This document shows positions 13,265 through 63,288 of a stretch of DNA of 64,000 nt, piece by piece. The translations under genes and the position numbers were made by a program. The notes beneath the pieces are model-generated. The model had not been told where the DNA came from. It saw nothing but the letters and a program-made list of their open reading frames with translations, and ran no database searches. The first letter of the stretch is position 1; each line of letters begins with the position of its first letter. The stretch is from Azolla caroliniana (Eukaryota > Plantae > Polypodiophyta), in assembly GCA_043228905.1 (NCBI GenBank), contig JBHGNT010000012.1, forward strand, positions 6,820,001 to 6,884,000, given 5' to 3'.

Positions 13265-14944
13265 TGCCGTGATGTGGCATACTCGAGTGTGGGAAAAACC
13301 GGCGAAAGGGGGGGTCAAAATGTGCATGTGCAATGTATGTGCACACAAAGACAATTAATTGTGCACATGCAAAAGAAAAGGGAAAAGAAAGGGTGGAAAG
13401 GAGGTATAGACACTCGTGTAAAAAGTAAGAGAGAGAAGAGATGAAAAGTAGAGAGGAGACATGCTATGAATATGTAGATATAGAATTATATATTATATAA
13501 TAGAGAGTTAATGGGTTAGTGGATAGACATATTGACTCTTAGCTAAAGGTGCACGGTTCAAATCTCGACTTACAATGTAACGTGATTTGAGGAATTTTAT
13601 TCCTTTTGCATTGAAGACGAATGTGGTGATCCCCCTTCCTTTTTTTCTTATAAAAGGAGGTCCAGGGGGGCTCATTGGGGAGGATGTTTTGGGAGGAGGA
13701 GACTATTGTCATTTTTCTTTCGGAGCTCTTAATCTTAATCTTCACCATTTCTCTTCATCTCATACCCCTTCATCCCCTCATCGCCACGTGTTCGTCTTCT
13801 TCGCGTTGACACTCAAAGTGCTCATTTATGGTGCTCGTGACCCCAAGCCTCGTTGGTTCGGTGTTGCTTCGCTCCCGTTCGTCGTTGCGAGCCCGTGTGC
13901 TCGCTATTCGGGTGGTCGTGGTTTGTTGGGGGAGACATTTTTGTGGTGCTTGTGTGCTCGTCTTCTTCGTGTTCAGATTTGCTTTTGTCTCTAAGGGCAT
14001 TTAGTATTTATGTTTTGTTGAACTTGTGGTTAACTAGAAGTTGTCACATTGTAATCAAACCCTAATTATAAAGGGCCCTCTTGCGTTGGAATCGAACACA
14101 TATTTATTTCCTTAGGCAATATCATTCGTGTTTTTCTTTCTTTCTTTATTCTCGTCCCCTTGTACGTTCGGCCTTCTTGTGACGAGGGAGCGTTTCGAGT
14201 GTGCCAATGCACCTCTACTCCTCATAAAGGTTTACGAGCATTTGTGCGTGTGTTTGTGTCTTCCTTGTACGTTCGGCCGTCTTGTGACGAGGGAGCGTTT
14301 CGGGCGTGCCCATGCACCTCTCCTCCTCATAAAGACGTACGAGCATTTGTGCGTGTGTTTGTGTCTTCCTTGTACGTTCGGTCCTCTTGTGACAAGGGAG
14401 CGTTCAGGCTTGCCTATACACCTCTCCTCCTCATAAAGCCGTACGAGCATTTGTGTGTGTGTTTTGTGTCTTCCTTGTATGTTCAACGTCTTGTGACAAG
14501 GGAGCATTTGGGCATGCCCATGCACCTCTCCTCCTCATAAAGACGTACGAGCATTCGTGTTTGTATTCTCTTCCCTTTCCTTGTACGTTCGGCGTCTTGT
14601 GACGAGGGAGCATTCGGGCGTGCCCATGAACCTCTCCTCCTCATAAAGACGTACGAGCATTCGTGTTTGTGTTCTCGTCCCCTTGTGTGTTCATCTTGCG
14701 TGCTCATCTTTGCTTGTACACGTTTGATCACTTGGCTCGTCCGGTGATCTTGAAAACTCGGCGAGTCATGATCAACGAAAGCCACCGGCCCCACAAATGG
14801 GGCAACGAGCCCTTGCTCGGGAAGGGATCGGGAAGTAGTATTGTTGTAAAGCAAACCTCAGGTCTTCTCTATCCCTTCGTACTCCCTAGTCCAAGACCCC
14901 CGTGGTCTCGATCAAGTAACACACACATGCGAAATTTCGTGACA
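13265..14944. mobile_element. Probable solo LTR (1.68 kb) with 4-bp TSD
   Basis: TG...CA termini, CCGT duplicated at 13261-13264 and 14945-14948, non-coding, absent from the sister LTR. Confidence 0.8.
14158..14685. repeat. ~105-bp tandem repeat, 5 copies
   Basis: CCTTGTACGTTCGG...CTCCTCATAAAGACGTACGAGCATT recurs at ~14158, 14263, 14368, 14473 and 14579. Confidence 0.9.
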
Positions 14945-15076: not shown

Positions 15077-15231
15077 CTGCTATAGTAATTGATCGGTTCT
15101 TCGTGAACGTAGGCTTAGACACAACACACGCAAATACGATGGGCTTGGATCAAGCTACCAAGCACTCTGATACCATGTAAAGAATCGGATATGATTCTGT
15201 GCAACGAAAGAGATGTGTGTGTGTGTGTGGT

Positions 15232-15475: not shown

Positions 15476-16195
15476 TGTTATGTACACATAACATTGGTGA
15501 GGGTAGGTCACCAATATTTACATTAGTGAAGGGTATGTTCACTAATGTTAAAAAGGGGACTAATGATTGGATAGAAGGAATGATAAGTGCATGCACTATC
15601 ATGATTTGGATAACCAATGAATGGAGAGCCTTTTAGAAAGGCATATCTATTCAAGGGGCCTAGGAAAAGGTATAAATATGAGGCTTAGCTACCCTCATAA
15701 GGACATTACGTCGGAAGGCTGCCGTCTTAGACACCGGTGGTGCGGGCTAGGCTTTCGTCTCGACGATCGTGTTTATCTCTTCCATGGTATTAGTCATCCT
15801 AATATCCGGCGGTATGGGACGTCGGTGGTAGGTTGGCTATGTCTAGATCATAGCTCGGGGGCGGTTGGGTGGAATGGGTTCTTCTATCCATTCTATTTTC
15901 CTTCTTTTACTTTAGTTTGGTCTATTGATTAGTAATAGACTCTTAACAGTGGTATCAGAGCATTTACTAGCATTTTTTTTTGTTGTTTTGATGTTTTTTG
16001 TGTGAGCGATGGGGATCTAACAAGGCTAGTCGTGCTCTTCACAGGATCAAAACAACATTCTTAACCCGGTATTCTTCTTTCTCGATCTCTCTTTTCTTTC
16101 CTATGATGCTTTCTTCTTTGTCATATGGAAGGGGTATTACATTTTCTTTTCTTTTCTTTCTTCTTTCTACCATCATACGATGTTAATCTACTTAT

Positions 16196-16640
16196 GCATC
16201 GGGTCGAGCATGTTTGCACTAATCACACACGCTCAACTCATGGCCCTTTTGCATATTGCGATGTATCTCCCACTCTCCCCTCTCTTGATCCTTCTCTTAC
16301 GATATTAATTATTGTTGTGCATTGGGTCGAGTGTGTTTGCCCTAATTGCACACGCTCACCTCATGGCCCTTTTGCATATGATGTTGAATATGCTACTCTT
16401 CCCTTTATTGAGCCATCACTAGTTGATTCTATGGGATGTTGTGGTCTGGATGAGGTGTATGTCGCCTACCTATGCCACTCTACTCTCTATTGAGCCATCA
16501 CTTGGCCGATTCTATGGGATGTTGTGTCCTTAACGAGGTATATGTCGCTTACCTATGCCACTTTACTCTTTATTGAGCCATCAATTGGCTGATTCTAGGG
16601 AGATGTGGTGGTCTTGAGGAGGTGCATGTCGACTACCTTA
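16196..16640. repeat. Imperfect tandem duplications in the retrotransposon leader (~125 bp x2, ~80 bp x3)
   Basis: GGGTCGAG...CTCATGGCCCTTTTGCATAT twice; TATTGAGCCATCA...GATTCTA three times. Confidence 0.7.
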
Positions 16641-17365: not shown

Positions 17366-17529
17366 CATGGTTGAGCCTTGGGGAGCCGCCATGATTATTC
17401 AAGATAGAGATCCGAGAAAGACATCTTAGCTATGTTTTCCCCCATGGTTTTTAAAACACCATAGTGTTACCATAGTTATCGGATCTCGAATCACATCTCA
17501 TATGTCTAGAGGGGTAAAGACGTGAGATG
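17366..17529 (+). ncRNA. Putative cis-acting structured RNA in chromovirus leader
   Basis: Conserved with 57077-57236 (minus strand) while the flanks diverge; compensatory base changes in a stem. Confidence 0.65.
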
Positions 17530-17628
17530 CTTTCTTGGTAAAGTTCTTACAATCAAAATTTCAAGCATTAATTTTGCTTGTGTATTTTTTGAACCTCCTT
17601 ATTTATATTGCATACCCACAGCTTGCAT

Positions 17629-20392
17629 CATGGAACAAGTTTTGAACGCTGTTGGAGCAATCTCTCTGACCGAGACCTCTCAACTCCAATCCGCATCTCG
17701 CACACAAGCTGAGATCACTATTGAGCAATTGCTCACTAATACCTTGAATCAATTGGCCGAAATGAGGCAGGCCAATATGGCATTGGAAAAGAAATTCCAA
17801 GAATTGACTATTGAGTCCAAGAAAGAAGGTGAGCCTTCTTTCGTAGTAACGCCATTCAAGGGAGATAAGAAAGAAAGAACCGAGGAGGCCATTAGCACTT
17901 GGCTTGGTCTTTGGGAGTCTCACTTTGAGCTCCACCCCAAGCCTGATGCTGTAAAAATTGGTTATGTCGGTCGTGAGTTAGGTGGCCCAGCTGCTGCTTG
18001 GTGGCGCGGCCTAAGGACTGCAAAGAACTTACCCACAACTTGGGAAGGTTTCGTTGATGTTTTTAAGAAATAGTTTTTGCAGCCACCTTCTCAAACTGAA
18101 CAAGTGCAACACTTGCTCACATTGTTGAGTAAGCCATTTACCTCTCTCGAGGATTATGTACATCATGCTCGGAACTAGATCTAAAAATCGGGACTTACGG
18201 GTGAGAAATGGTTTGTTGCTTGTTTTTTGAATGGTATTCGTAATGGGGATTACCATTGGATTCTCCATGACAAGAACCCCACAACTTTTGAGGAAGCCAT
18301 CAACATTGTACTTCGGTATCATAGGACTTCCAAGAAAGACCACAATAAACCCGAGTTTGCCAAAACTTTGAATGTCAAGTTCATTGGGAAACCTAAGCAA
18401 TCCAAAGACACTCTTGACCGCGACTCCAAGAAACCTAACCTCTTCTGTGCATATTGCAAGAAACGGGGCCACACAAAGGATACCTGTCGTCATCTTGAGA
18501 GGAAGTCAATGAACACCCCTCCTCAAGACAAATCTACGAGTCACACAGGTGAGTCTTTTGATGTTGTTGAAGTTCATACCAACCACTTAAGTTCATGTGA
18601 ATGCACTTTTCCTTCACCTTTACTTGGACCTAATGATTTACTCCGAGCAGTCGGGTATATCAATGGAACACAAGCACATTTCTAGTTTGATTCCGGTAGT
18701 TCTCACAATTTTCTTAATGATCACTTTGTGTAGCAAATGGAACTCCACATAAATGCAAGTGATCATATCTATCAAGTTCACATGGCAAATGGAAGTGTTC
18801 AATACATCAGTGGCATTGTTTGTCACCTGTCAATTCAAATAGATACCTATTTGGAGAAGCTTGACTTTCAGATTATGAAGCTACAATCTGCAGATGTCCT
18901 TTTAGGATACCATTGGTTTTTTAATAAAAACCCATTGATTGGGTTAATCACTCAATCACATTTGAACTTAATAATTGTAAACATTTTATTCAATGTTCCA
19001 AACTTCCTTCTTGTTCACTTGAGTCTTCTAAATATTTAAGTGAGTATTCAAGTTCATTAATTTATTCGTGTGTAATTGATCCTGCGCTTCAATTTTATTA
19101 TTTTAATATTGACACCACACAATTACCACATTATGAACAATGATTACTCAACTCTATTTTAGATGATTTTCAAGACGTGTTTCCTAACGAATTGCCATTT
19201 ACTTTACCACCAAAACATAATGTGGACCATCAAATTGAACTCATTCCTGGTGCTGCTCCTGTGAGCATTCCACCTTATCGACTTAGTCGATTAGAAGATG
19301 GTGAGATTGCTAAACAACTTAAGGAATACTTGAGTATGGGCCACATTAGGTATAGTAAATCACCTTGGGGTGTGCCAGTTCTATTGGTTAAGAAGAAGGA
19401 AGGTTCATGGCGAATGTGTATCAATTATCGCCGTTTGAATAAAATGACAATTAAAAATGCATATCCGTTACCTCGTGCCAATGATTTGATTGATCATTTG
19501 GATTGGGCCTGATATTTTACGAAAATTGACTTACGGACAAGTTATCATCAGATTCGCATTGCCGAGGATGATATTCCTAAAACCGCTTTTCGTACGCGCT
19601 ATGGCCATTATGAGTTTTTAGTCATGCCTTTCGGGTTGACTAATGCTCCAGCCACATTCCAACAAACGATGAATGACGTTTTTCGAGATCAACTCGGTGA
19701 TTTTGTTGTCATCTTCTTGGATGATATTTTGATATATAGCCATACCTTGCAAGATCATGTTCAACATGTTCGATGTGTTTTGCAAAAGTTGCGTGACAAC
19801 TCTTTCTATGCAAAAAATTCAAAATGTGATTTTTTCCAAAAATCTATTGTGTACCTAGGTCATTTAATTACGGAAAATGGTGTTGAAATTGAACCTTCTC
19901 ATATTGAAAAGGTTAAACTTTGGCCCATTCCTCGTAATATTTGTGAACTGTGATCATTCTTAGGGTTTGTTGGATTTTTACGAAAATTAATTCGTAATTA
20001 TTCCAAATTGACTACGCCATTAACTGACCTTTTAAAAGGTCATCCACATAATTCTGTCAAACCAATTGCATGGAATGAACAACTTGACAAATCATTTGAG
20101 ACACTCAAAGAGCATGTGTGTCTGGCTCCCATTCTTCTATTACCGGGCCCTTCTAAGCCTTTCTCAATCGAAACCGATGCCAATGATTATGCTATTGGTG
20201 CCGTTCTTTATCAAGGGGGTCACCCTATTTCTTTTGAAAGTAAGAAGCTTGATGCTGCTCAATCTCGGTATTCGGTTCAAGAGAAAGAGTTGTTTGCGGT
20301 GATACATGCACTTAAAACATGGAGGCACTATCTTTATGGAAATAAATTTGTGGTTACAAAAGACCATCAATCATGAAGTATTTTTGTGACCA
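17629..20392 (+). pseudogene. gag-pol: Gypsy gag-pol (gag, CAYCKKRGH knuckle, PR, RT, RNase H)
   Basis: FLDDILIYS RT, ETDANDYAIG RNase H; multiple nonsense codons. Confidence 0.92.
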
Positions 20393-49871: not shown

Positions 49872-52098
49872 CGTGGTACCGCGTGTTCTTGGTCTAGAAG
49901 TGTGTGCACGCCACGCCTTAAGTCCTTTTAATAGCGTCGCTATCTTCTCTCATTTTTTCCCTTTTTTTTCCGTAACGGTTACATACAAGCCTATTTTTAC
50001 ACTAAAATACAAGTGGGGCCATTGACTTACTCCGCAGATTCTCCGGCTTTGCCTTGTCTGGCGGGGAACGAGTTAGGTGGCATGGGTCCCAGATAAGGTT
50101 TAAGGCGAAACCCATTCACTTTCTGTCGTAGTACTGCCCCGACCAGTGTGCCCAGTTTAAATGTGCCTTGTTCCGCTCCTACTATCCAATACGGGCCTGT
50201 CCAGCGGAATCGTAATTTTCCTGGCATATGCCCCATGCAGGTTTGGAAAACCAGTACCTTTTTGCCGACCGCAAAATCCTTTTCCCGTGCGTTCCGATGT
50301 CGATCCACAAATACTTTACGTCATCGTTGCTCCTGATCCAACACAGCCATGTTGTGTACGCGTGTTTCGCCGAGTTCGAGTACCTAGTGCAATCATACTG
50401 CCTCCGACATGGCTTAAGATAGTCGGTCCCGTACTTGAATCCGTAAACTGGGTAGCTGGAACTCTATCGGCATAACGGCCTCCAGTCCAAACGCTAGTCG
50501 AAACGGTGTTGATTGTATGCTTGTTTTGTAGCTGGTCCTATACGCCCATAATGCACTATGTAATTTGGTATCCTAGTCCGTTCTATTGTCATTGACGATT
50601 TTCTTTAATATAGTCTGCAATGTCTTGTTGGTGGATTCCGCCAACCCATTCGCCTATGGGTAATATGGCGTACTCTTCTTGTGGACCACTACATAATGTT
50701 GTGTTAGTTCATGAACCACCGTATTGAGAAAGTGGCTCCCCTGATCGTTGATGAGCTCAATCGGACAACTGAACCGACACCATATGTGTTTGTAAAGGAA
50801 TCTCGTCGTGACAGCTGCCATATTCTCCCATAGTGCCTTTGCTTTTACCTACTTGGTGCAATAATCCGTGGCCACCAATATGTATTTATTACCCGTACGG
50901 GCCGCAGCCGGTGTGAAAGGGCCTACAAAATCCAATCCCCACTTTTGGAAGGGATCTAACGGCAATACAGGCTGGTGAGGCATTCTTGCGCCCTCCGTGG
51001 GCTGGCCCATCCGTTGACACAAATCGCACTTTTTGCAATAGTCATACGCATCCTTCTGTGTAATTGGCCACCATAGGCCTGCTTGCCATATTTTCCGGGC
51101 CATAACATCTCCCGCGTAGTGTCCGCCCGTCGTGCCGCAGTGAGCCTCCCGTAAGATTGCTTCTTTCTCATCCTGATGTACACTGCATCGCCAAATGCCA
51201 TCACTGCCTTTGTGATATAAGATTCCTTCTACTAAGCAAAAGTTACGGCTTCGGGCGGCTAATCGCTTCTTCTCGTCTGTGCGTAATTGCGGTGGGGACA
51301 GTCCCATAGTCAAAAAGTAGGTCATTTCCATGAGCCACCAGTCCAAGGAAGTCTTTTCTGTTCATTCTGTTAGTGTTGCTATCCACATAATGTTTGCATC
51401 CGAAAAGTTGTTGTCATCCCTCTGCGCCGTTTCTCCATTGTCAAGTCTGCTCAAAAAATCTGTCATTGCGTGTTGCGTACTCGGGCGGTGCTGAATTACA
51501 AAATCGAATTCTTGAAGCAGCAGCATCCATCTTGCCAATTTCCTCGGAAGCGCTTGTTTTTCCACCAAATATAGTTGTGTCGAATGATCCACGTGAAATG
51601 TGAATTTCCGCCCTAACAAATAACGCCGGAATTTATTGATGTTGTAGATCATCCCCAATGCCTCACGTTCCGTTGTGGAATAGTTACGCTCCGCCGTTGA
51701 TAATTTCCGACTAGCGTAGTACACCGGTCGGTACCAATTTGGCTCTGTGAGCTGCATTAGCGCACTTCCTATTGCTATATCCGAGGCATCTACGAACACG
51801 TGGAATGGCTTCGCCCAAACTGGTGGTTGTACGATGGGTGCCTACGTGAGAATTACCTTTAGCGCGTCATATGCCTTTTCTTTCGTCGTTGTCCATTGGA
51901 AGGGAATCCGGTGCACGGTGGCATGTAACGGTGTGGCGAAGTTCGCCAAATATCGTATCATCTGACTGTGCCATCGTATTTGTCCTAAAAAACGGCTGAG
52001 TGCTTTCGCGTTTGTCGGGGTTTTGGCTTGAGTAATCATAGAGATTTTATTCAGATTGACCGCTATCCCTTCCTTGCTGACTATATGGCCTAGGAGAG
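48731..52098 (-). mobile_element. Athila-like Gypsy remnant (RT end, RNase H, integrase, downstream accessory ORF)
   Basis: LLGHIVSKEG, FVDASDIAIG, WGLDFVGPF, GKLRFRWTGPY and VNGFRLKPY motifs; cut at both ends by other LTR elements. Confidence 0.85.
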
Positions 52099-52539
52099 TA
52101 TTATAGATCTAGGTACTAATGTAAGCTTAAGATAAGGATAAAGAAATGAAAGATAGAAAGGAGAAAGAGAAAGAAGGGTGCCGATCCACCCGACCACCCC
52201 CGAGCGAAGGGATCGAGACGGACTCGAGCCTCAATCAGCGTCCCATACCACCGCCGTGGCGTCGAGTCGTACCTGGTGCTGGCGCGCTCGCTACAAGAGT
52301 TGACCCACCACATGAGCAGAGTCTCGATGTAGTCAAAAGATGATCCAATGAGGGTAGCTAGGCCTCTTATTTATAGCAATACCCAAGGCCCCCAGGCAAG
52401 TTCACACTTGACCTAATGGGTTGTCTCAATCCCGAGGATTAAAAGTAATCCTCCCCTTCTTTACACTCTCGTTTAACCCTCACACTTATCCACGTGTATA
52501 GAATACTACGGTAAATTCTCACCACGGGATATTAAATGG

Positions 52540-55500
52540 TCATGCCCGTAACATACTCCCCCTCTTTAAAACATTGCACTCTTGCAATGGAAAGTTAGGG
52601 AAGTTAGTTCTAAGAGTATTTTCGCGTTCCCATGTGGCATCTTTTATTGATTTATCCATCCATTTTATTTTAAATTCTCGGATTTCTTTAGTACGTAATT
52701 TTTTTGTTTTAACATCGAGAATTCTTTCTGGTACATGTGGTTTAGAAGATAATTCTTCAGAAGTAACCAGAGTTTCAGTCGTAACTGTATTGTCGCCAGA
52801 ACCTAGAAGTTCTTTTAGACGACTCACATGAAAGACTGGATGAATTCCGACACCATCGGGAAGAGCGAGACAATAGGCTGATGACCCAATGCGTTTGAGG
52901 ACTGTAAAAGGTCCACAAAACCGTGGGGCTAACTTAGCGCACTTACCCGTAGACAATGTCTTAGAATTGTGAGGTACACGTAAAAATACCTTCTGTCTAG
53001 GGTTGAATACACGAGGTTGCCTATGATGATCGGCATAAAAACGCGCTCTATCTTGAGCTGTTTTTATATTATCTCGTGCAATATGCAACATATCTTGCAT
53101 ATCCCGAAGAAAGTTTTGCGTACTTCGCAACTCATCATGATGTATATTAACATCAATCGGAGCTCGTGGCTGAAAACCATACATCAACATAAAAGGACTA
53201 TATCCCGTCGACGTATGCTTGGAGCTGTTATAAGCAAACTCCAAAATTGGGAGATAACGTTCCCATTTTGTTGGTTTTGCACCAACGTATGCTCGAAGCA
53301 TGTCCTCAATAATTTGATTTACTCGTTCTGTCTGTCCATCGGATTGAGGATGATCCATGGAGCTCATGCTCAACGTAGTTTCTAACTTCTTAAAGACTTG
53401 TGTCCAGAAGTCACTAGTAAACTTTGGATCTCGATCACTCACGATATCCATCGGTAACCCATAAAAACGAAACAATTCGTCAACGAATTGGTAAGCCAAT
53501 TCAGGAGCTGTTACCGTGGTTTTAGTAGCAATAAATCTGGCCATTTTAGTTAGTCGATCAACGACAACCCAGATGGCATCATGACCTTTTTGGGTGTGAG
53601 GAAGGCTAACAATAAAATCCATGGATATACTTTCCCACTTATTATTGGGAATGTCCAAGGGATGTAAAAGTCCTGCGGCTTTAAGTCGCTCGGCTTTGTT
53701 AACCTGACGCTGGTGACATTTAGTCACATAGCTATGTATGTCAGGACGCATCTTAGGCCAATAAAATTGAGTGGAGATGAGAACGAGTGTACGATGTATT
53801 CTAGGGTGCCCTGCTGAGGGTGCATCATGGCATTAAAAAAGAATCCTCTTTTTGACCTCGGGTAAATCTGGAACACAAACCTTCCCATTACGGTAGAGCA
53901 AACCGTTAGCAATGTGGAAGTATTCCTTCGAGGATGTGGTGGTGTCTGTTCCAGACTCAACTCTTGCCTAGTATTTTGCGAAATAACTATCATCAGGATA
54001 CTTTCCTCGAAGGTGATCATAAAGATCTGATGATATTGCAGTGAAGCTAAGCGTGTTAACTTCACGGATGCGACTTAGTGCATCAGCGACAATGTTCATG
54101 GAACCTTTACGATATCGTATGGAAAAATCGAAGTCCTGGATGAGATCAGCCCATCGTGCCTTACGACCTTTCAGGTCTTGTTGGTCACAAAAATATTTCA
54201 AGGACTCGTGGTCCGTAGTTACCACAAAGTGATTTCCATAAAGATAATGGCGCCATGTTTTGAGCGCATGTATAACTGCAAATAATTCCTTTTCTTGAAC
54301 GGTATACCGACATTGAGCAGAATCAAGTTTCTTACTCTCGAATGCTATTGGTTTACCATCTTGATACAAGACAGCACCTATAGCATAATCGCTTGCATCG
54401 GTTTCAACCTCAAAAGGTTTTGAAGGATCGGGTAAAAGAAGTGAAGGAGCCTTGCAAACCAGGTCCTTGAGTTCCTTAAAGGCAAGGTCTAGTGTAGCAT
54501 TCCACACAATAGGTTTTGTAGACTTACGCGTTTGACCTTTTAAAAGATCAGTAAACAGCGTCGTCAATTGGGAGTAATTACGAAGAGACTTTCGCAAAAA
54601 CCCCACAAAACCAAGGAATGATCGAACTTCTCGAATATTCCGAAGAGTGGGCCAAAGCTTGATTTTCTCAATGCGAGAAGGATCAATTTCAACTCCTCGT
54701 TCGGTTATGAGATGTCCTAGATAAGTAATTGATTTCTTGAAGAACTCACATTTTGAGATCTTCGCATAAAACTGTTTGTCACGCAATGTTTGTAAAACAA
54801 AGCGGACATGTCTAGCATGTTCTTGTAATGTACGGCTATAAACTAAAATATTATCCAAGAAAATAACGACAAATTTTCCAAGTTGTTCTCGGAAAATGTC
54901 ATTCATTTCTTGTTGAAAAGTAGCCGGAGCATTGGTCAAACCAAAAGGCATAACCAAAAACTCGTAATGGCCATAACGCGTACGAAATGCCGTTTTAGGA
55001 ACATCGTCCTCACTTATTCGTATTTGATGGTAGCCAGTACGGAGATCAAGTTTCGTAAAATACCGAGCTCCCTGGAGACGGTCAATTAGATCGTCAGCCC
55101 GGGGCAATGGATACGAATTCTTGATCGTCACTTTATTCAAGCGTCGGTAATTAATCCACATACGCCATGTGCCCTCTTTCTTTTTAACCAAGAGAACTGG
55201 TGCACCCCATGGAGATTTACTATAACGTATATAACCCATTCGTAAATAGTCCTTGAGTTGCTTAGATACCTCATCTTCTTCAGATCGACTTAAGCGATAC
55301 GGAGGTATACTTATTGGTGCAACACCAGGTACAATGTTTATACGATGGTCTATATTACGTTTAGGAGGTAACCCATCAGGTAGTTCACTTGGAAAAACAT
55401 CATGAAAATCATTTAAGATTTCATAAAGTTTTTGTTGTTCAAAATATGTTAATTGAATCAGAACATTATCGATATTGTAAACGTGAATGTCTGGATCAAG

Positions 55501-56844
55501 TACACAATAAAATAACGTAGAACAAGACAACTCGGATATTGATGGACACAAGGAAACAACCGAGAGGGATTGTTTTTTTACACATTGAATAAAATGCGTA
55601 CAATCGTTCAGTACAAAAGAAATGGAATGACGAGCCCAATCAATAAATAAAGAAGAGTTTTTATTATAAAACCAGGGATAACCCAGTATTACATCGGTGG
55701 TACAAAGATTCATTACATGGAAGTCTACTTCCTCTATATAAGTAGCAATAGAAATTCCTAATGAATGAATCGCCCCGTTGATGTATTGTACTCTTCCATC
55801 AGCCAAGTGCACCGTGTAGGTGTGATCACTTATGGTGGGTTGGATTCCCCATATCTGAACCAAACGATCATTCACAAAATTGTGTGAGCTTCCCGAATCA
55901 AATAAAAATTGTACGGGAGATCCATTGATATACCCGTTTGCACGTAGTAAATCATTGGGACCCAATACATAGTGAGGGAAAGAACATTGACAATTACTTA
56001 AATGATGTGTATAGACCTGAAGGACATTAGGAATCTGACCTTTATGGTCTGCAGCTTTAGCTTTGTTGTCGTGCTCTTTCCGTTGGAGCTTTCGACATTG
56101 ATCTTTTGTATGACCCTTCTTTTTGCAGAATACACAAAAAGGATGTTGTCGCTTACAATCGCGATCCAAGAATTCGTTGGGTGTCTTGCGTTTCCCAACA
56201 AATTGCGACTGCTTAGTCCCGGGCGCTTCGTTGGGTTTGTTATGGTCCTTCTTCGAAGTGCGTTGATAGCGAAGAACTATTTCAACGGCCTCTTCGAAGG
56301 ATTTTGGATCCTTATCGTGCACTATCCAGTGATAGTCCGAATTGGGGATGCCATTGACAAAACAAGCTATCAACCAATTGTCCCCTTCTAGACCTGATTT
56401 TTGGATTTGGGTTCTAGCATGGTGAACATAGTCTTCTAGCGAGGAAAATTTCCTGCTAGAGAGATTCATTAAAGCTTGTGCGGCCTCGGTTCGAGAGGGA
56501 GGTTGCAGAAATTGACCCTTAAAAACCGTGACAAAATCTGTCCAGGTATCGGGCAATTTCCCCATAGTACGGAGGCCACGCCACCAGGCGGCGGCCTTAC
56601 CGCCGAGTTCTCGGCCGACATATGCAATCTTCGTACTATCTGGCGTGGGATAGAGCTCAAAATGAGACTCCCATCGTCCCAGCCATGTGCAGATTGCTTC
56701 TTCGGTTCTTTCCTTTTTGTCTCTCGTAAATGGCTTAACGACAAATGATGGTTCACCTTGTCGCTCATCAGGTCTATTAGTCTCACGTTGTAGACTAATG
56801 ACACGTGCCTCAAGAGCACTCTGAGATTGCCGAAGTTTGGTCAT
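52540..56844 (-). pseudogene. gag-pol: Single-frame gag-PR-RT-RH-IN-chromodomain polyprotein with two nonsense codons and RT FLDN
   Basis: The 958-aa and 403-aa ORFs are in the same frame (stops ~53968 and ~53834). Motifs [30 protein letters not shown] and chromodomain PERILD...KW...ATWE. Confidence 0.95.
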
Positions 56845-57076
56845 CTGTTGAGCGGTGAAACTAAGGTATTGGGTTATTTGTGCCTAATACATCTCAGTGG
56901 ACATTTGTCCAGGAGGATTCCCTTGAGTTCCTTCCGCTTGAGCGGATGACATCGGGTCGTTAATTTGAGCCATGAAAAATTATTTCTGGAAAAGAAATAG
57001 GATAAGGTCAGAGATATAGTCATAACATCATGTCGTGATGTAAACATATCATGGGCGAGCATTAATCGATATCATT

Positions 57077-57236
57077 ATCTCACGTCAATACCCCTCTAGA
57101 CGTATGAGATGAGGTTCAAGATTAGGTTACTATGGTAACACAAAGGTGTTTTAAAAACCATGGGGGTGACAAATAAATGTCTTTCCCTGATCTCTATATC
57201 GATTTTTTCATGGTGGCTCCCCGAGGCTCAACCATG
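57077..57236 (-). ncRNA. Second copy of the putative structured leader RNA
   Basis: Reverse complement aligns with 17366-17529. Confidence 0.65.
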
Positions 57237-58582
57237 TATGTTCGCGTCATGAATAGTTTATACACGAAAAAAATGTTAACAATAAACTATGTTTCGGTGC
57301 CCACATAAGTGGTTTCGGCTCTTTAAGTCCTATTACGAGGACCCCGAGGTGCACTTAGACCTTAAGTCTAAACATGTGTTATAGTCATATGTATCAAGGA
57401 TGTTGTATGGTCTTTGTCATATTTGAACTTGAGACCTCGAGAACAAATACATTAAACACTTGAGCCAACCAAGTAAGTTGCTCTTCTCGACTTAATGTTT
57501 GATGCGTATAAGAGATATGCGAGGCAATTGATCATATATGTTTTTTTAAAAGAACATATATGTCAAGGGTCCTTATTTCGCCCTCATTTACCAAAACTAT
57601 GTTGGTACGTTACCTAACCTCAAGTCTCGTAATTACGATGGCATACTCCAAAGTGCAACCTAATGGTCAAGCCAAATGAGCCCTCATTTCGTAGTAGGCT
57701 CACGTGGGCCATCACATGGTCACGTCATTACGAATGCCTCTCGTAAGAACGATCTCATGGTGGCATCGTATCCATGTAACGAGGGAGGGATGTTGGATAC
57801 GTGCATCATTGGAGCGACCTCACTTGAAGTGGGTCAAGCCCTACGTACTCAACATCATTATGGCTATTGGCATTTCTTTACGTAACGAAATCGAGGTCAT
57901 CAACGGGGTTATCAACAATAAAAAATTGTTGAAAAAGGGATGGTGACAACGCCATTCTCACAAAAATGTGAGGACGGCCACCAACATCCTTTTCCCGACC
58001 ATGACAACTTTCGATATAATCACGTAATAACGAATATGGGTCGAAGCACGCTACGGTGTACCAAAAAAGTACTGTTTTTGGCCACAAAAATTGTCAGTAC
58101 TTTCAATACTGTTAGTACTGAATAATTCAGAAAAAAAATTAGAGAAAAAGAAAATCGATTTTGGAGAGTGGAGTGACTGTAGTACAAGTGGCATTTACTG
58201 TAGAAGGAGTGGGGGGAACACGTGAGGAGATGTTCTTCCATTTTGGGGGCTATTTTCCCCTCACGTCGATTTTGGCGCTTCCCCTCACGTGGTTTTGGCG
58301 ATTCCCCTCATACTGTTCTTCCTCTATCTCTCTGAGCTTTTCATCACAGACATCCATGTCACGTTTCTGATCTTCCTTCAATCTAAATCTCAGACATCCA
58401 TGTCTGGTTGGAGAGTTTGAGTTGAGGATTTCTGATTTTTTTAGGGTTTCTGTTTTTGTTAGGTTTCGGTTGAGGTACAGAGACTGTTCTAAGGGTTTAG
58501 GTAGCAGCCAATAGTCACTTCTTCGACAACGACTTTCGTACTTCCATTGATTGCAGTTGATGTCGTGGTGATTTGGGGCTTT

Positions 58583-58988: not shown

Positions 58989-61900
58989 GTGGATAAATCT
59001 AGTGACCGAATGGGGGTTCCTAACGAGAGTGAGTTGTCAAGTAACTCATGCATATCTAAAAGGACTAAGAGACGAGTGGTTCTTCACATAGTTCGTTATT
59101 TGGTAGAAATAACGAAGAGATTTAGTGAAGAGGATCGTAGGGATATTATTTGTAGAGTGTTACACCATCAAAGTTTGAATGAAGACATGGAGAGAATAAA
59201 ATTTAGGGACCAATGTGTTTCAGAAGAGATTGTGGAGTCTATGAAGTCATCCCTAGACTTAGTGAAAGGTGTAGAGAGCTTAGACAAACTTGCTGCAAAG
59301 AGGGCAGCCCTACACATGGTTGTGAACGGTGCGAGAGAAAAAAAATATAGTGATACTAAAGTTGCCTTAGCCCTGGGTATTCAAAGAAGGAACTTGAGGA
59401 AACATCGCTGAAATATACACTCAAGCAAATTCAAGTGGCTGGGGTCGGGACGTAGACGACGATGTGATGCCTTATCTCAAGAGATTATTGAGAAAGTGGA
59501 TTCATTTTGGGCCAAAAATACGCGTGTCTCACCAAATAAGAAGGACGTGTGTAGACAACGAATAAGTCAGGGTAAGTACCAGATTCACCCTAGACACTTC
59601 TTGGAGATGACAGAGGTATTCCATTTTTTTATATCAATTCACATTCCATAACTTTGTGTTTTGACCAAGTGTATATTAATGTTTGCTATATATATTGGTT
59701 GATGTAGGCTGAATTGTACATGAACTTTAAAGACCAACATCCAAGCTTAACTGTCGGATTCCGCAAGTTCCAAGGTTTGAAACCATTTTATGTTAGAAAA
59801 TTAAATGAGAGGAATACATGTTGTTGTGTGTACCATGTGAAGATGGACATGTTAAGGCTAGCAGTGAATGCAATGCGTACTGATTCTAAGGGTATACATG
59901 GGGAATTATGTGTCTGCACTTGTGAGATTTGTAGACCAAATGGGGAGGATAATAGGTGTAATGCACGAAACATGACTTATGCATCCGTTTCTGTGCTATG
60001 GAGGTCTTGTGTTTGTGAAAAAGAACCATCATGTGAGTGACATCGTCGTACATGTCTATTAAGAACATGTAAGGTTTGTCCGCTACCATTATTTTGTAGG
60101 CAGGAGCTTGATATGGGAAATAGTCATATCGTGAAATGGAAATATTTGGAGTATGTGACTGAAAATATTGGCAAGGGAGTTGTAACTAAGCGTATCAAGG
60201 AAGTATATAAGGAGACATGTGCTGCTACCCTTGTCTCAGAATTTAAGAAACAACTTGGGGAGTTTATTCCACATAACTTCCGGAGTTATTGGCAAAATTC
60301 ACAGTTCAAGGAATGTATTAATAACTTACCAACGGGTGTCATTGTATCCGTTATTGATTTTGCAGAAAACTATACATTTAAAGTTCAAAATGAGGTTCAA
60401 TCAATGCATTGGTACAATGATCAATGTACAATACTTGTACATATTTGCTATTGGCGGCAAGACGGTGAGTTACATAAGAAATCAATATTTTACATTTCAG
60501 ATGATAAAAAGCATGATACACTATTTGTTCAACATTGTTTTAAGCTTCACCATGCAGATTTATTTTCTCTAGGGTTAACCTTTAACCGTCATTGGGTTTG
60601 GTCTGATGGTGCTGCCTCGCAGTTTAAGGCGGCATGATCGTTCTACTTTATCGCCAGGTAATTTTTAATCCATATGTTTAATACTTATCATGCAATGTGT
60701 AAGGAAGTAAATCTTGTGTTAGTGGATGCATACTAATTATGTTTGTAACTATTAACAAACAGTACTAGTCACATCGATGCATACTAATTATGTTTCTAAC
60801 TATTCGAATCTTGCACTTGTGAATGGATGCATGCATACTAATTTTGTTTGTATTATGTTGTACTAAGTAACTTTTAATCCATGTGAAGTGTTCTCCATAG
60901 ACACATTGTACTATGTTGTGTTTACAGAAGGATGTAAAGTACTCATCTTGTACTCATAGTATTGTCCGTCCTTAAGAGAATTGTACTAATGAACTTTTTA
61001 TCCATGTGAAGTGTTCTCCATAGACACATTGTACTATGTTGTGTTTACAAAAGGATGTAAAGTACTCATCTTGTACTTAGAGTATTGTCCGTCCTTAAGA
61101 GAATTGTACTAATTATGTTTTAATCCATGTGAAGGGTTCTCCATAGACACATTGTACTATGTTGTGTGTTGGTTTTGTACTATGTTGTGTTTACAAAAGG
61201 ATGCAGCCCTACTCATCTTGTACTTATAGTATTGTCCGTCCTTAAGAGAATTGTACTAATTATGTTTTAATCCATGTGAAGGGTTCTCCATAGACACATT
61301 GTACTATGTTGTGTGTTGTATCTGTACTATGTTGTGTTTACAGGAGGATGTAAAGTACTCATCTTGTACTCATAGTATTGTCCGTCCTTAAGAGAATTGT
61401 ACTAATTATGTTTTAATCCATGTGAAGGGTTCTCCATAGACACATTGTACTATGTTGTGTGTTGTATCTGTACTATGTTGTGTTTACAGGAGGATGTAAA
61501 GTACTCATCTTGTACTCATAGTATTGTCCGTCCTTAAGAGAATTGTACTAAGTATCGATTAATCCATGTGAAGGGTTCTCCATAGACACATTGTACTATG
61601 TTGTGTGTTGGTTTTGTACTATGTTGTGTTTACAAAAGGATGCATCCCTACTCATCTTGTACTTATAGTATTGTCCGTCCTTAAGAGAATTGTACTAATT
61701 ATGTTTTAATCCATGTGAAGGGTTCTCCATAGACACATTGTACTATGTTGTGTGTTGTATCTGTACTATGTTGTGTTTACAGGAGGATGTAAAGTACTCA
61801 TCTTGTACTCATAGTATTGTCCGTCCTTAAGAGAATTGTACTAAGTATCGATTAATCCATGTGAAGGGTTCTCCATAGACACATTGTACTATGTTGTGTG

Positions 61901-63288
61901 TTGGTTTTGTACTATGTTGTGTTTACAAAAGGATGCAACCCTACTCATCTTGTACTTATAGTATTGTCCGTCCTTAAGAGAATTGTACTAATTATGTTTT
62001 AATCCATGTGAAGGGTTCTCCATAGACACATTGTACTATGTTGTGTGTTGGTTTTGTACTATGTTGTGTTTACAAAAGGATGTAAAGTACTCATCTTGTA
62101 CTTATAGTATTGTCCGTCCTTAAGAGAATTGTACTAATTATGTTTTAATCCATGTGAAGGGTTCTCCATAGACACATTGTACTATGTTGTGTGTTGTATC
62201 TGTACTATGTTGTGTTTACAGGAGTATATAAAGTACTCATCTTGTACTCATAGTATTGTCTGTCCTTAAGAGAATTGTACTAAATCAGTATTTACTCATC
62301 TTGTACTCATAGTATTGTCCGTCCTTAAGAGAATTGTACTAAATCAGTATTTACTCATGTTGTACTCATAGTATTGTACTCATCTTGTACTCACCAAAGT
62401 AGGTATTTCTCTTTATTCAATATTCGTATGCAATGGAATTACTTCGGGTCTGGACATGGAAAAGGAGAGCATGATGGCGCGGGGGCTGTGATCAAACGTG
62501 CCCTTACAAGTGAGCAGTTGGATAATAATGGCGCTAAGTTACAAAATGCACATGATGTTGTGCAGTGGCTAACATGGAAGATGTCAAATGATGGTAAGAA
62601 CAGATTGTTTGTTGAAGTTCGCGGTGATGAGGTCGATAGAACTAAATCATATGGTTGTAAAACCGTGAAAGGCACACGCAGCACCCATTGTGTGTTAGGG
62701 TTTAGCCGCAAGGACACAACCCAATTGTTACTCCGTAGTTTATCATGCTTTTGTTCCATGTGTCTAGATGAAGCTTGGGATAAATGCATCAACCTATCAA
62801 TCGTGGAGCCCTGGAAGTTGCAGAAGCTTGAGCCTGAACGACAAGATGATATTGAAGAGGATGTGCATTCAAACGATATTGTATACTACAACCAAAATCA
62901 AGACTTGGCAGTTTTATTGGAAGTTGGAGATCATTTTGCAGTGCTCAAATATTCTCAGAATGAAGATTTAGAAGACTACTACATTGTGGTGTGCAAGCAA
63001 GGAAAGACATTATTGAAAGAAGTGGTGACGGATGGTTGGGGCAACAATTTCAACGTTGGTGAGTCTGTCGTGTATGGAAACTATTATGCAAAGTTGCCGC
63101 AGTGCAAGAACACATATGCATTACTAAAAGAAGCACCCATCGCAATAATCTACGCTGATGCCATTCTTGCGATCAAATTCAATATGACTCAAGCAAAGCA
63201 CAAGGTTAAGGGATACAACACTGTCTACAAGGTCCCCCAAGAGGTTCATGAGCACATATTAGGGGAGGTCTCTCTATTTAATGCTTGA
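58989..63288 (+). pseudogene. Spliced DDD/E transposase, Sola-like, about 820 aa (exons ~58989-59615, 59708-60657, 62403-63288), three in-frame TGA stops
   Basis: GT-AG introns 59616-59707 (phase 0) and 60658-62402 (phase 2) keep the frame. Motifs SPNKKD, CCCVYH, IDFAENY, WSDGAASQFK, FGSGHGKGEHDGAG, SCFCSMC. True start codon not located. Confidence 0.75.
60870..62390. repeat. Intronic satellite: 10 units (123 bp x2, then 146-147 bp) plus degenerate tail
   Basis: ATCCATGTGAAG recurs at 60877, 61000, 61123, 61270, 61416, 61562, 61709, 61855, 62002 and 62148. Confidence 0.95.

Follow-up and report, generated by a model that had tools for sequence, protein, structure and literature searches.

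What keeps a short non-coding block alike in the leaders of two LTR retrotransposons, when the sequence on either side of it no longer aligns? The stretch of Azolla caroliniana DNA that we analysed (64,000 nt; hereafter the window) is made up of nested plant LTR retrotransposons, two of which, E1 and E2, carry such a block upstream of gag. The comparisons below point to an RNA structure of 163 nt, conserved in the leaders of a single plant chromovirus clade and kept at about 80% identity in four lineages.

Two copies in diverged elements

E2, judged by its gag-PR-RT-RH-IN order and the chromodomain on its integrase, is a chromovirus (Ty3/gypsy), and E1 is 69% identical to it over gag-RH. The E2 ORF (52543-56973, minus strand) encodes gag, PR, RT, RH, IN and the chromodomain in a single frame that premature stops interrupt, and matches Ty3_capsid, aspartyl protease, RVT_1, RNase H, rve and Chromo in Pfam. 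Gag carries a CX2CX4HX4C zinc knuckle, as read from the sequence. The chromodomain lacks the first aromatic residue, as do the type II chromodomains discussed in excerpts of PMC3350952, and by that comparison we infer that it is type II-like. In an RT tree of 25 of the 120 matches listed (one short match dropped; clade-labelled references such as Tekay, Reina, Galadriel and Tcn1 not among the rows), E2 and four unnamed proteins formed a clade with support of 100/99, apart from the 20 other rows, and the named relatives among the rows reached at most 64% identity over the RT core. The polypurine tract (52567-56) and the 3′ LTR (from 52553) of E2 occupy 52100-52567 (minus strand; far LTR end approximate), whereas no 5′ LTR or PBS of E2 was found in the window. 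The 3′ LTR adjoins RT/RNase H/integrase sequence of a different gypsy element (50500-52090, minus strand), into which E2 probably inserted. In public DNA runs the family is high-copy, with a summed contig depth of about 1e5 (a depth, not a copy number); none of the holders listed in a search of public runs was on record as RNA. In two probably-RNA runs the contig depth at the LTR (52080-52560), a poor measure, was about ten times that of the leader, which is what solo-LTR read-through would give.

E1 lies on the plus strand, with a 5′ LTR at 15477-15948 (left border set by eye) and, directly 3′ of it, a PBS at 15950-15961, which we take to be of the initiator-Met type. A leader of 1666 nt follows the PBS. 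The gag-PR-RT-RH region (17630-20392) contains stops and a frameshift, and its homology with E2 stops inside RNase H. Elsewhere in the window, about five 105-nt tandem units (14147-14693) lie upstream of a minus-strand PBS-like site at 15175, and about ten units of 146-147 nt, of two alternating types, occupy 60858-62354.

In a self-blastn of the window, positions 17366-17528 (plus strand; copy 1, in E1) pair with 57236-57077 (minus strand; copy 2, in E2) at 82.3% identity over 164 columns (E 4e-37), which bears out the first-pass annotation, where a closely similar non-coding block had been noticed in both leaders. Counted by block columns, 129 of 163 match (79%), so that the two copies are 79-82% identical by either count. 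Covariance model R1, built with both copies, scores them at 201 and 209 bits, respectively; its next matches in the window (E 0.35 and 0.93) do not amount to a third copy. The same self-blastn gave a single further alignment between E1 and E2, in gag-pol (69.3% over 2597 columns). A more sensitive comparison added two LTR matches: a TATA-box block of 28 nt (93%; 15671-15698 against 52375-52348) and a G-rich block of 69 nt (71%; 15807-15873 against 52253-52185) that includes GGTATGGGACG, a possible donor or regulatory motif.

The remaining leader sequence fails to align, as had also been remarked at first pass: the 165 nt upstream of the block are 48% identical (z 1.1) and the 95 nt downstream 51% (z 1.2), values like those of shuffled sequence, against an alignment z of 28 for the block, and the flanks are thus not conserved as the block is. 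Between E1 and E2, 80 of 220 fourfold codon sites match (36%), while codon positions 1 and 2 match at 75% and 82%; at 79%, therefore, the non-coding block is conserved like protein-constrained sites. Its borders were reproduced independently by a 679-nt contig from a public run, which matches the window at 57077-57237 only and is unlike it on either side.

One pattern scan of metagenome contigs, with a pattern that demanded the C-run, the ACCAUA motif and the purine loop described below, yielded 11 further loci, which score 113-214 bits with the covariance model (nine of them had helped to build it). Downstream of the block stands gag at seven loci, the contig edge at two and other sequence at two, and no gene-less family retaining the block was found among the 11. 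Together with the window copies they make 13 copies in four lineages: E1-type, E2-type, L004 and L009. At one locus, L001, the frame is intact over 795 codons and 98.9% identical to P0160. Three block patterns and one Gag query found nothing among viral contigs, and two bacterial contigs (L012 and L013) shared 20-mers only; as the rest of the block is absent from them and they score 9.8 bits, we regard these as chance matches.

Between lineages the block is 75-85% identical; identity at fourfold sites is 32-38% for E2 against the others and 61-65% for L004 against E1 and L001. Block identity is 85% between E1 and L004 and 76-79% to E2, an order that parallels the pol distances and speaks against a recent transfer of the block between families.

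Predicted fold and covariation

We aligned E1, E2 and nine of the 11 loci, excluding L005 (cut off) and L008 (5′ part rearranged), and RNAalifold predicted helices P1, P2, P4/P5 and P6 on this alignment. In copy 1, P1 is a hairpin at 17367-17392 (arms 17367-71 and 17388-92) with the apical 8-mer CCUYGGGG at 17376-83. P2, a long stem spanning 17407-17487 (17407-15 with 17479-87), closes a predicted three-way junction, inside which lie a variable hairpin, P3 (17420-36), the C-run (17439-43) and P4/P5 (17444-73). P6 is a predicted hairpin at 17495-17528 with the purine loop AGAGGGGUA at 17508-16. The corresponding parts of copy 2, on the minus strand, are the P1 loop at 57226-19, P2 at 57194-86 with 57126-18, a palindrome (see below) at 57159-45, and P6 at 57110-57077. 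At L008 (359-539, minus strand) a duplicated P3/C-run/P4 segment stands in place of P1.

All the helices named at first pass were recovered in place, and the structure they form pairs in 98.1% of alignment cells, compared with 28-50% for slid controls. Of its 38 pairs, 24 never vary. The compensatory changes claimed for the long stem are real: three of the nine P2 pairs change on both sides over the four lineages, and every two-sided change in the block falls in P2. The mismatch reported alongside them is present in the minus-strand copy and absent from its relatives, which pair there. The covariation score, which relatedness inflates, was above all 500 shuffles, whereas the count of covarying pairs was matched or beaten by 133 of 500; four lineages are too few for proof of covariation at the level of R-scape. 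When one representative per lineage is compared, 7 of 34 pairs vary, of which five still pair and two break, and 57 of 96 unpaired columns are invariant. In five of six copies the variants include two or three G-U and no A-C pairs (E2 has one of each), which favours the sense strand. Folding energies of the sense and antisense strands are about equal. Single window copies fold with z of -2.8 and -1.5; single-sequence folds form the P2-P3-P4/P5 junction for L002 and L009, and other minimum-energy folds for L001, L004, E1 and E2.

Conservation far above that of neutral sites, the two-sided changes in P2 and variants that are G-U rather than A-C, together with the absence of an Rfam match, support the view that the block is a selected, cis-acting, sense-strand RNA structure, as the annotation had supposed, its covariation amounting to three pairs in one helix over four lineages. 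The pseudoknot also proposed there, between the GGGG of the P6 loop and the C-run, stays a guess: both partners are invariant, but the search pattern demanded them, so that the invariance of C-run, ACCAUA and purine loop arises partly by construction, and columns that never vary show no covariation and neither support nor refute the pairing. P1 contains another GGGG, with which the C-run could pair instead.

Several parts of the block resemble sequences elsewhere in the elements. AGAGGGG occurs both in the P6 loop and in the polypurine tract of the same element (57089-57097 and 52556-52567, both minus strand); the C-run could pair with that tract in a 5′-3′ circularisation, or the P6 loop could be an internal primer. 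The 5′ strand of P1 (TGGT..GAGC, 17368-17377) resembles the PBS at 15950-15961 with a short gap, and might be a second contact for the primer tRNA. The motif TTGAGCC, also in P1, recurs in the E1 leader (16173-16638) within tandem repeats that are degenerate and about 60 and 120 nt long; L004 retains a 51-nt piece at 88% identity.

Candidate dimerisation and packaging motifs

The block sits at the end of the leader, between the PBS (15950) and the gag AUG (17630), and contains two conserved self-complementary motifs. The first is the apical 8-mer of P1, self-complementary if G-U pairs are allowed and a candidate kissing loop. P1 was found in 11 of the 13 copies (the others being one cut off and one rearranged), and the loop is self-complementary in all 11; its sole varying base (C/U) sits opposite a G, so that pairing is kept. 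The second, a candidate for another dimer contact, is a 14-nt palindrome with one bulged C over P4/P5 (17446-17460, plus strand), invariant in 13 of 13 copies. The search pattern did not include the P1 loop or most of the palindrome. The palindrome would also account for the pattern in the P5 loop, where one base, the first, is fixed and the remaining three vary.

As an intermolecular duplex the palindrome has a predicted energy of -10.2 to -14.8 kcal/mol, compared with -5.4 to -5.6 for the monomer hairpin, the duplex being 5-9 kcal/mol stronger. A palindrome of 14 nt was reached by 20-26 of 300 shuffles and is thus modestly unusual. The gain of a whole-block dimer exceeds shuffles in two of the four lineages: for L001 and L002, 1 and 2 of 40 shuffles were as good, whereas for L004 and L009 it was 19 and 28 of 40. 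Neither intermolecular pairing shows a two-sided change in the alignment. The G-rich purine loop of P6 is predicted to be exposed; it was imposed by the search and may be paired in the pseudoknot.

This leader layout, with two self-complementary motifs and a purine loop, resembles the dimerisation and packaging signals of MLV and MMTV. We therefore tentatively prefer, at slightly less than even odds, the reading that the block acts as a DIS/Psi, the dimerisation and packaging signal of the genomic RNA. In such a scheme the monomer would consist of two hairpins, P1 and P6, on either side of the three-way junction P2-P5, and pairing between the C-run and the P6 loop might lock this fold. Two genomes would make their first contact through kissing of the P1 loops. 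With the zinc-knuckle Gag as chaperone, the weak P4/P5 hairpin would next open into a duplex of 14 bp between the two molecules, and binding of Gag to exposed G-rich loops would commit the dimer to the particle.

We compared the block with known leader signals, using excerpts of the papers cited. In MoMuLV, two palindromes with a register shift (PAL1 and PAL2) belong to a Psi that also contains SL-C and SL-D (PMC7357161); like the block, it lies in the leader before gag and combines two hairpin-to-duplex motifs (candidates in the block) with a downstream hairpin. The block, however, has no sequence match to it and no GACG kissing loops in its model, and it has a three-way junction, a possible pseudoknot and a plant chromovirus as its setting. 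In MMTV, a DIS palindrome stands next to a single-stranded purine loop (GGAGAAGAG, with GGAG) to which Gag binds (PMC8096270); the block likewise has a predicted purine-rich apical loop near a palindrome in the 5′ leader, but loop sequence and fold differ, and Gag binding, demonstrated for MMTV, is a proposal for the block. The yeast LTR retrotransposon Ty1 needs PAL1/PAL2 and a 5′ pseudoknot for dimerisation and replication (PMC9503155), features that the block matches with its palindromes and candidate pseudoknot; Ty1, however, is a Ty1/copia element, and its motifs lie at the RNA 5′ end and in gag rather than 1.4 kb into a non-coding leader.

Searches for a described family agree with the first impression that none is recognisable. 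Rfam 15 gave no match at gathering threshold in the window (best E around copy 1, 0.86 and 0.95) and none up to E 1 for L002 and L009. The match at E 0.86 is to the tRNA-like structure TLS-PK4 (RF01085), at 15 bits against a gathering score of 80; it is absent from L002 and L009, the block lacks a 3′ CCA, and the similarity seems driven by CCCC/GGGG. A match to snoR26 was due to chance. Likenesses to HIV TAR, the BTE core, PTE and hatchet find no support in Rfam. The openly available full-text literature yielded no description of the block: three papers matching a motif search were unrelated by title and abstract, and the available portions of PMC7197481, PMC7730604 and PMC5035971 added nothing on chromovirus leaders. 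We conclude that the block is a real RNA motif, apparently not yet described, in a single clade of chromoviruses, and that it probably belongs to a known type of signal.

Competing readings and wider meaning

Of the functions offered at first pass (IRES-like element, packaging or dimerisation signal, nuclease block, ribozyme), the evidence favours dimerisation and packaging over an IRES. A packaging role, however, leaves two features unexplained, namely the fixed distance to the gag AUG and the translation of a leader with 49 AUGs (counted in E1). From the block end to the AUG there are 101-105 nt in all eight copies that reach it: 101 nt in E1 (spacer 17529-17629, plus strand; AUG at 17630) and 103 nt in E2 (spacer 56974-57076, minus strand; AUG at 56973). 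The annotation had thus correctly placed the block upstream of gag, but its range of 100-230 nt does not stand.

It is possible, if unlikely, that the block is IRES-like, its fold recruiting the 40S subunit or eIF4F and delivering it to the gag AUG about 100 nt on, past the AUG-rich leader; such a role may overlap with packaging. The constant spacing, kept despite spacers that do not align between E1-type and E2-type copies, fits an IRES better than packaging, and the leader AUGs, the length difference of about 340 nt upstream of the block between E1 and L006, and the invariance of so many unpaired columns point the same way. The order of structured domain, pyrimidine tract and AUG also recalls type I/II picornavirus IRESs, as described in excerpts of PMC5759354, although a type II IRES has about 450 nt, and the block has no Rfam match. 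Against an IRES are the 6-7 AUGs inside E2-type spacers (seven in E2 itself), several of them out of frame, and the lack of any match to Rfam IRES and 3′CITE models. Because the distance from purine loop to AUG is 0, 1 or 2 modulo 3 over the eight copies, with in-frame stops present, an in-frame start of the dicistrovirus IGR type is excluded, and in-frame non-AUG initiation and a coding spacer are ruled out as well.

The spacer also raises the prospect, distinctly less probable, that the block lies in a leader intron, spliced RNA serving for Gag-Pol and unspliced RNA keeping the block for export or packaging. A branch-point-like motif, a pyrimidine tract and a YAG end stand 8-14 nt before the AUG in seven of eight copies, compared with 0-3.9% of upstream leader positions, by criteria set after seeing the sequences; in E1 these are branch-point-like, pyrimidine-rich and CAG motifs (CAG at 17619-21), and in E2 an acceptor-like pyrimidine tract with CAG ending 12 nt 5′ of the AUG. 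One contig of a probably-RNA run begins 14 nt 5′ of the aligned gag start, where contigs of DNA runs break at 15 nt, as a splice junction could give; a downstream variant could equally cause the break. The acceptor AG, moreover, is absent from L009 and from L001, whose frame is intact, and the leaders yielded no donor-like motif that is conserved. A loose end at the gag start, predicted beforehand for contigs joined to the E2 LTR in four probably-RNA runs, was absent among the 24 loose ends listed of 148, and none of nine joints in the same runs had GT..AG ends.

A little less probable again is that the block is a DNA-level element (an internal promoter or enhancer), a captured host fragment, a recently exchanged module or neutral sequence. 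Helices that are mostly invariant rather than covarying and the near-equal energies of the two strands would suit a DNA-level element; the persistence of pairing in five of seven varying pairs, the sense-strand bias of the G-U variants and block identities that follow the pol distances speak against it, and no host RNA in Rfam matches a captured fragment. Least probable of all is a self-cleaving ribozyme or nuclease block missing from the catalogues, which would give some transcripts a new 5′ end and hence a short-leader mRNA: the invariant unpaired positions, possible pseudoknot and fixed AUG distance would fit, and self-cleavage can induce cap-independent translation in plants (PMC13725137), but cutting 3′ of the PBS would destroy genomic RNA, Rfam holds no ribozyme or xrRNA match, and motif scans of five blocks found no hammerhead (as the annotation had stated), twister, pistol, hairpin or sense-strand HDV core.

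The dimerisation and packaging reading might also be combined with its competitors, though we rate this as improbable as a DNA-level element: the monomer fold would self-cleave or load ribosomes, producing a short-leader Gag-Pol mRNA, until Gag-driven dimerisation through the palindromes stops that and marks the uncut genome for packaging. If true, the block would represent a novel class of RNA, catalytic or switching, by which the transcripts of an LTR retrotransposon are divided into two pools.

Ideas on how the RNA of plant LTR retrotransposons is selected, dimerised, exported and translated come largely by inference from work on retroviruses and on yeast Ty1. According to a 2025 review, the export of this RNA has yet to be studied directly in plants (PMC12786077), and excerpts of a plant study report that no Psi or DIS leader structure was found in its element (PMC4350172). 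Being compact, sharply bordered and available as natural variants from four lineages, the 163-nt RNA allows direct testing. It is a candidate new Rfam family, and should it prove to be an IRES or a ribozyme, it would show how long AUG-rich leaders get translated.
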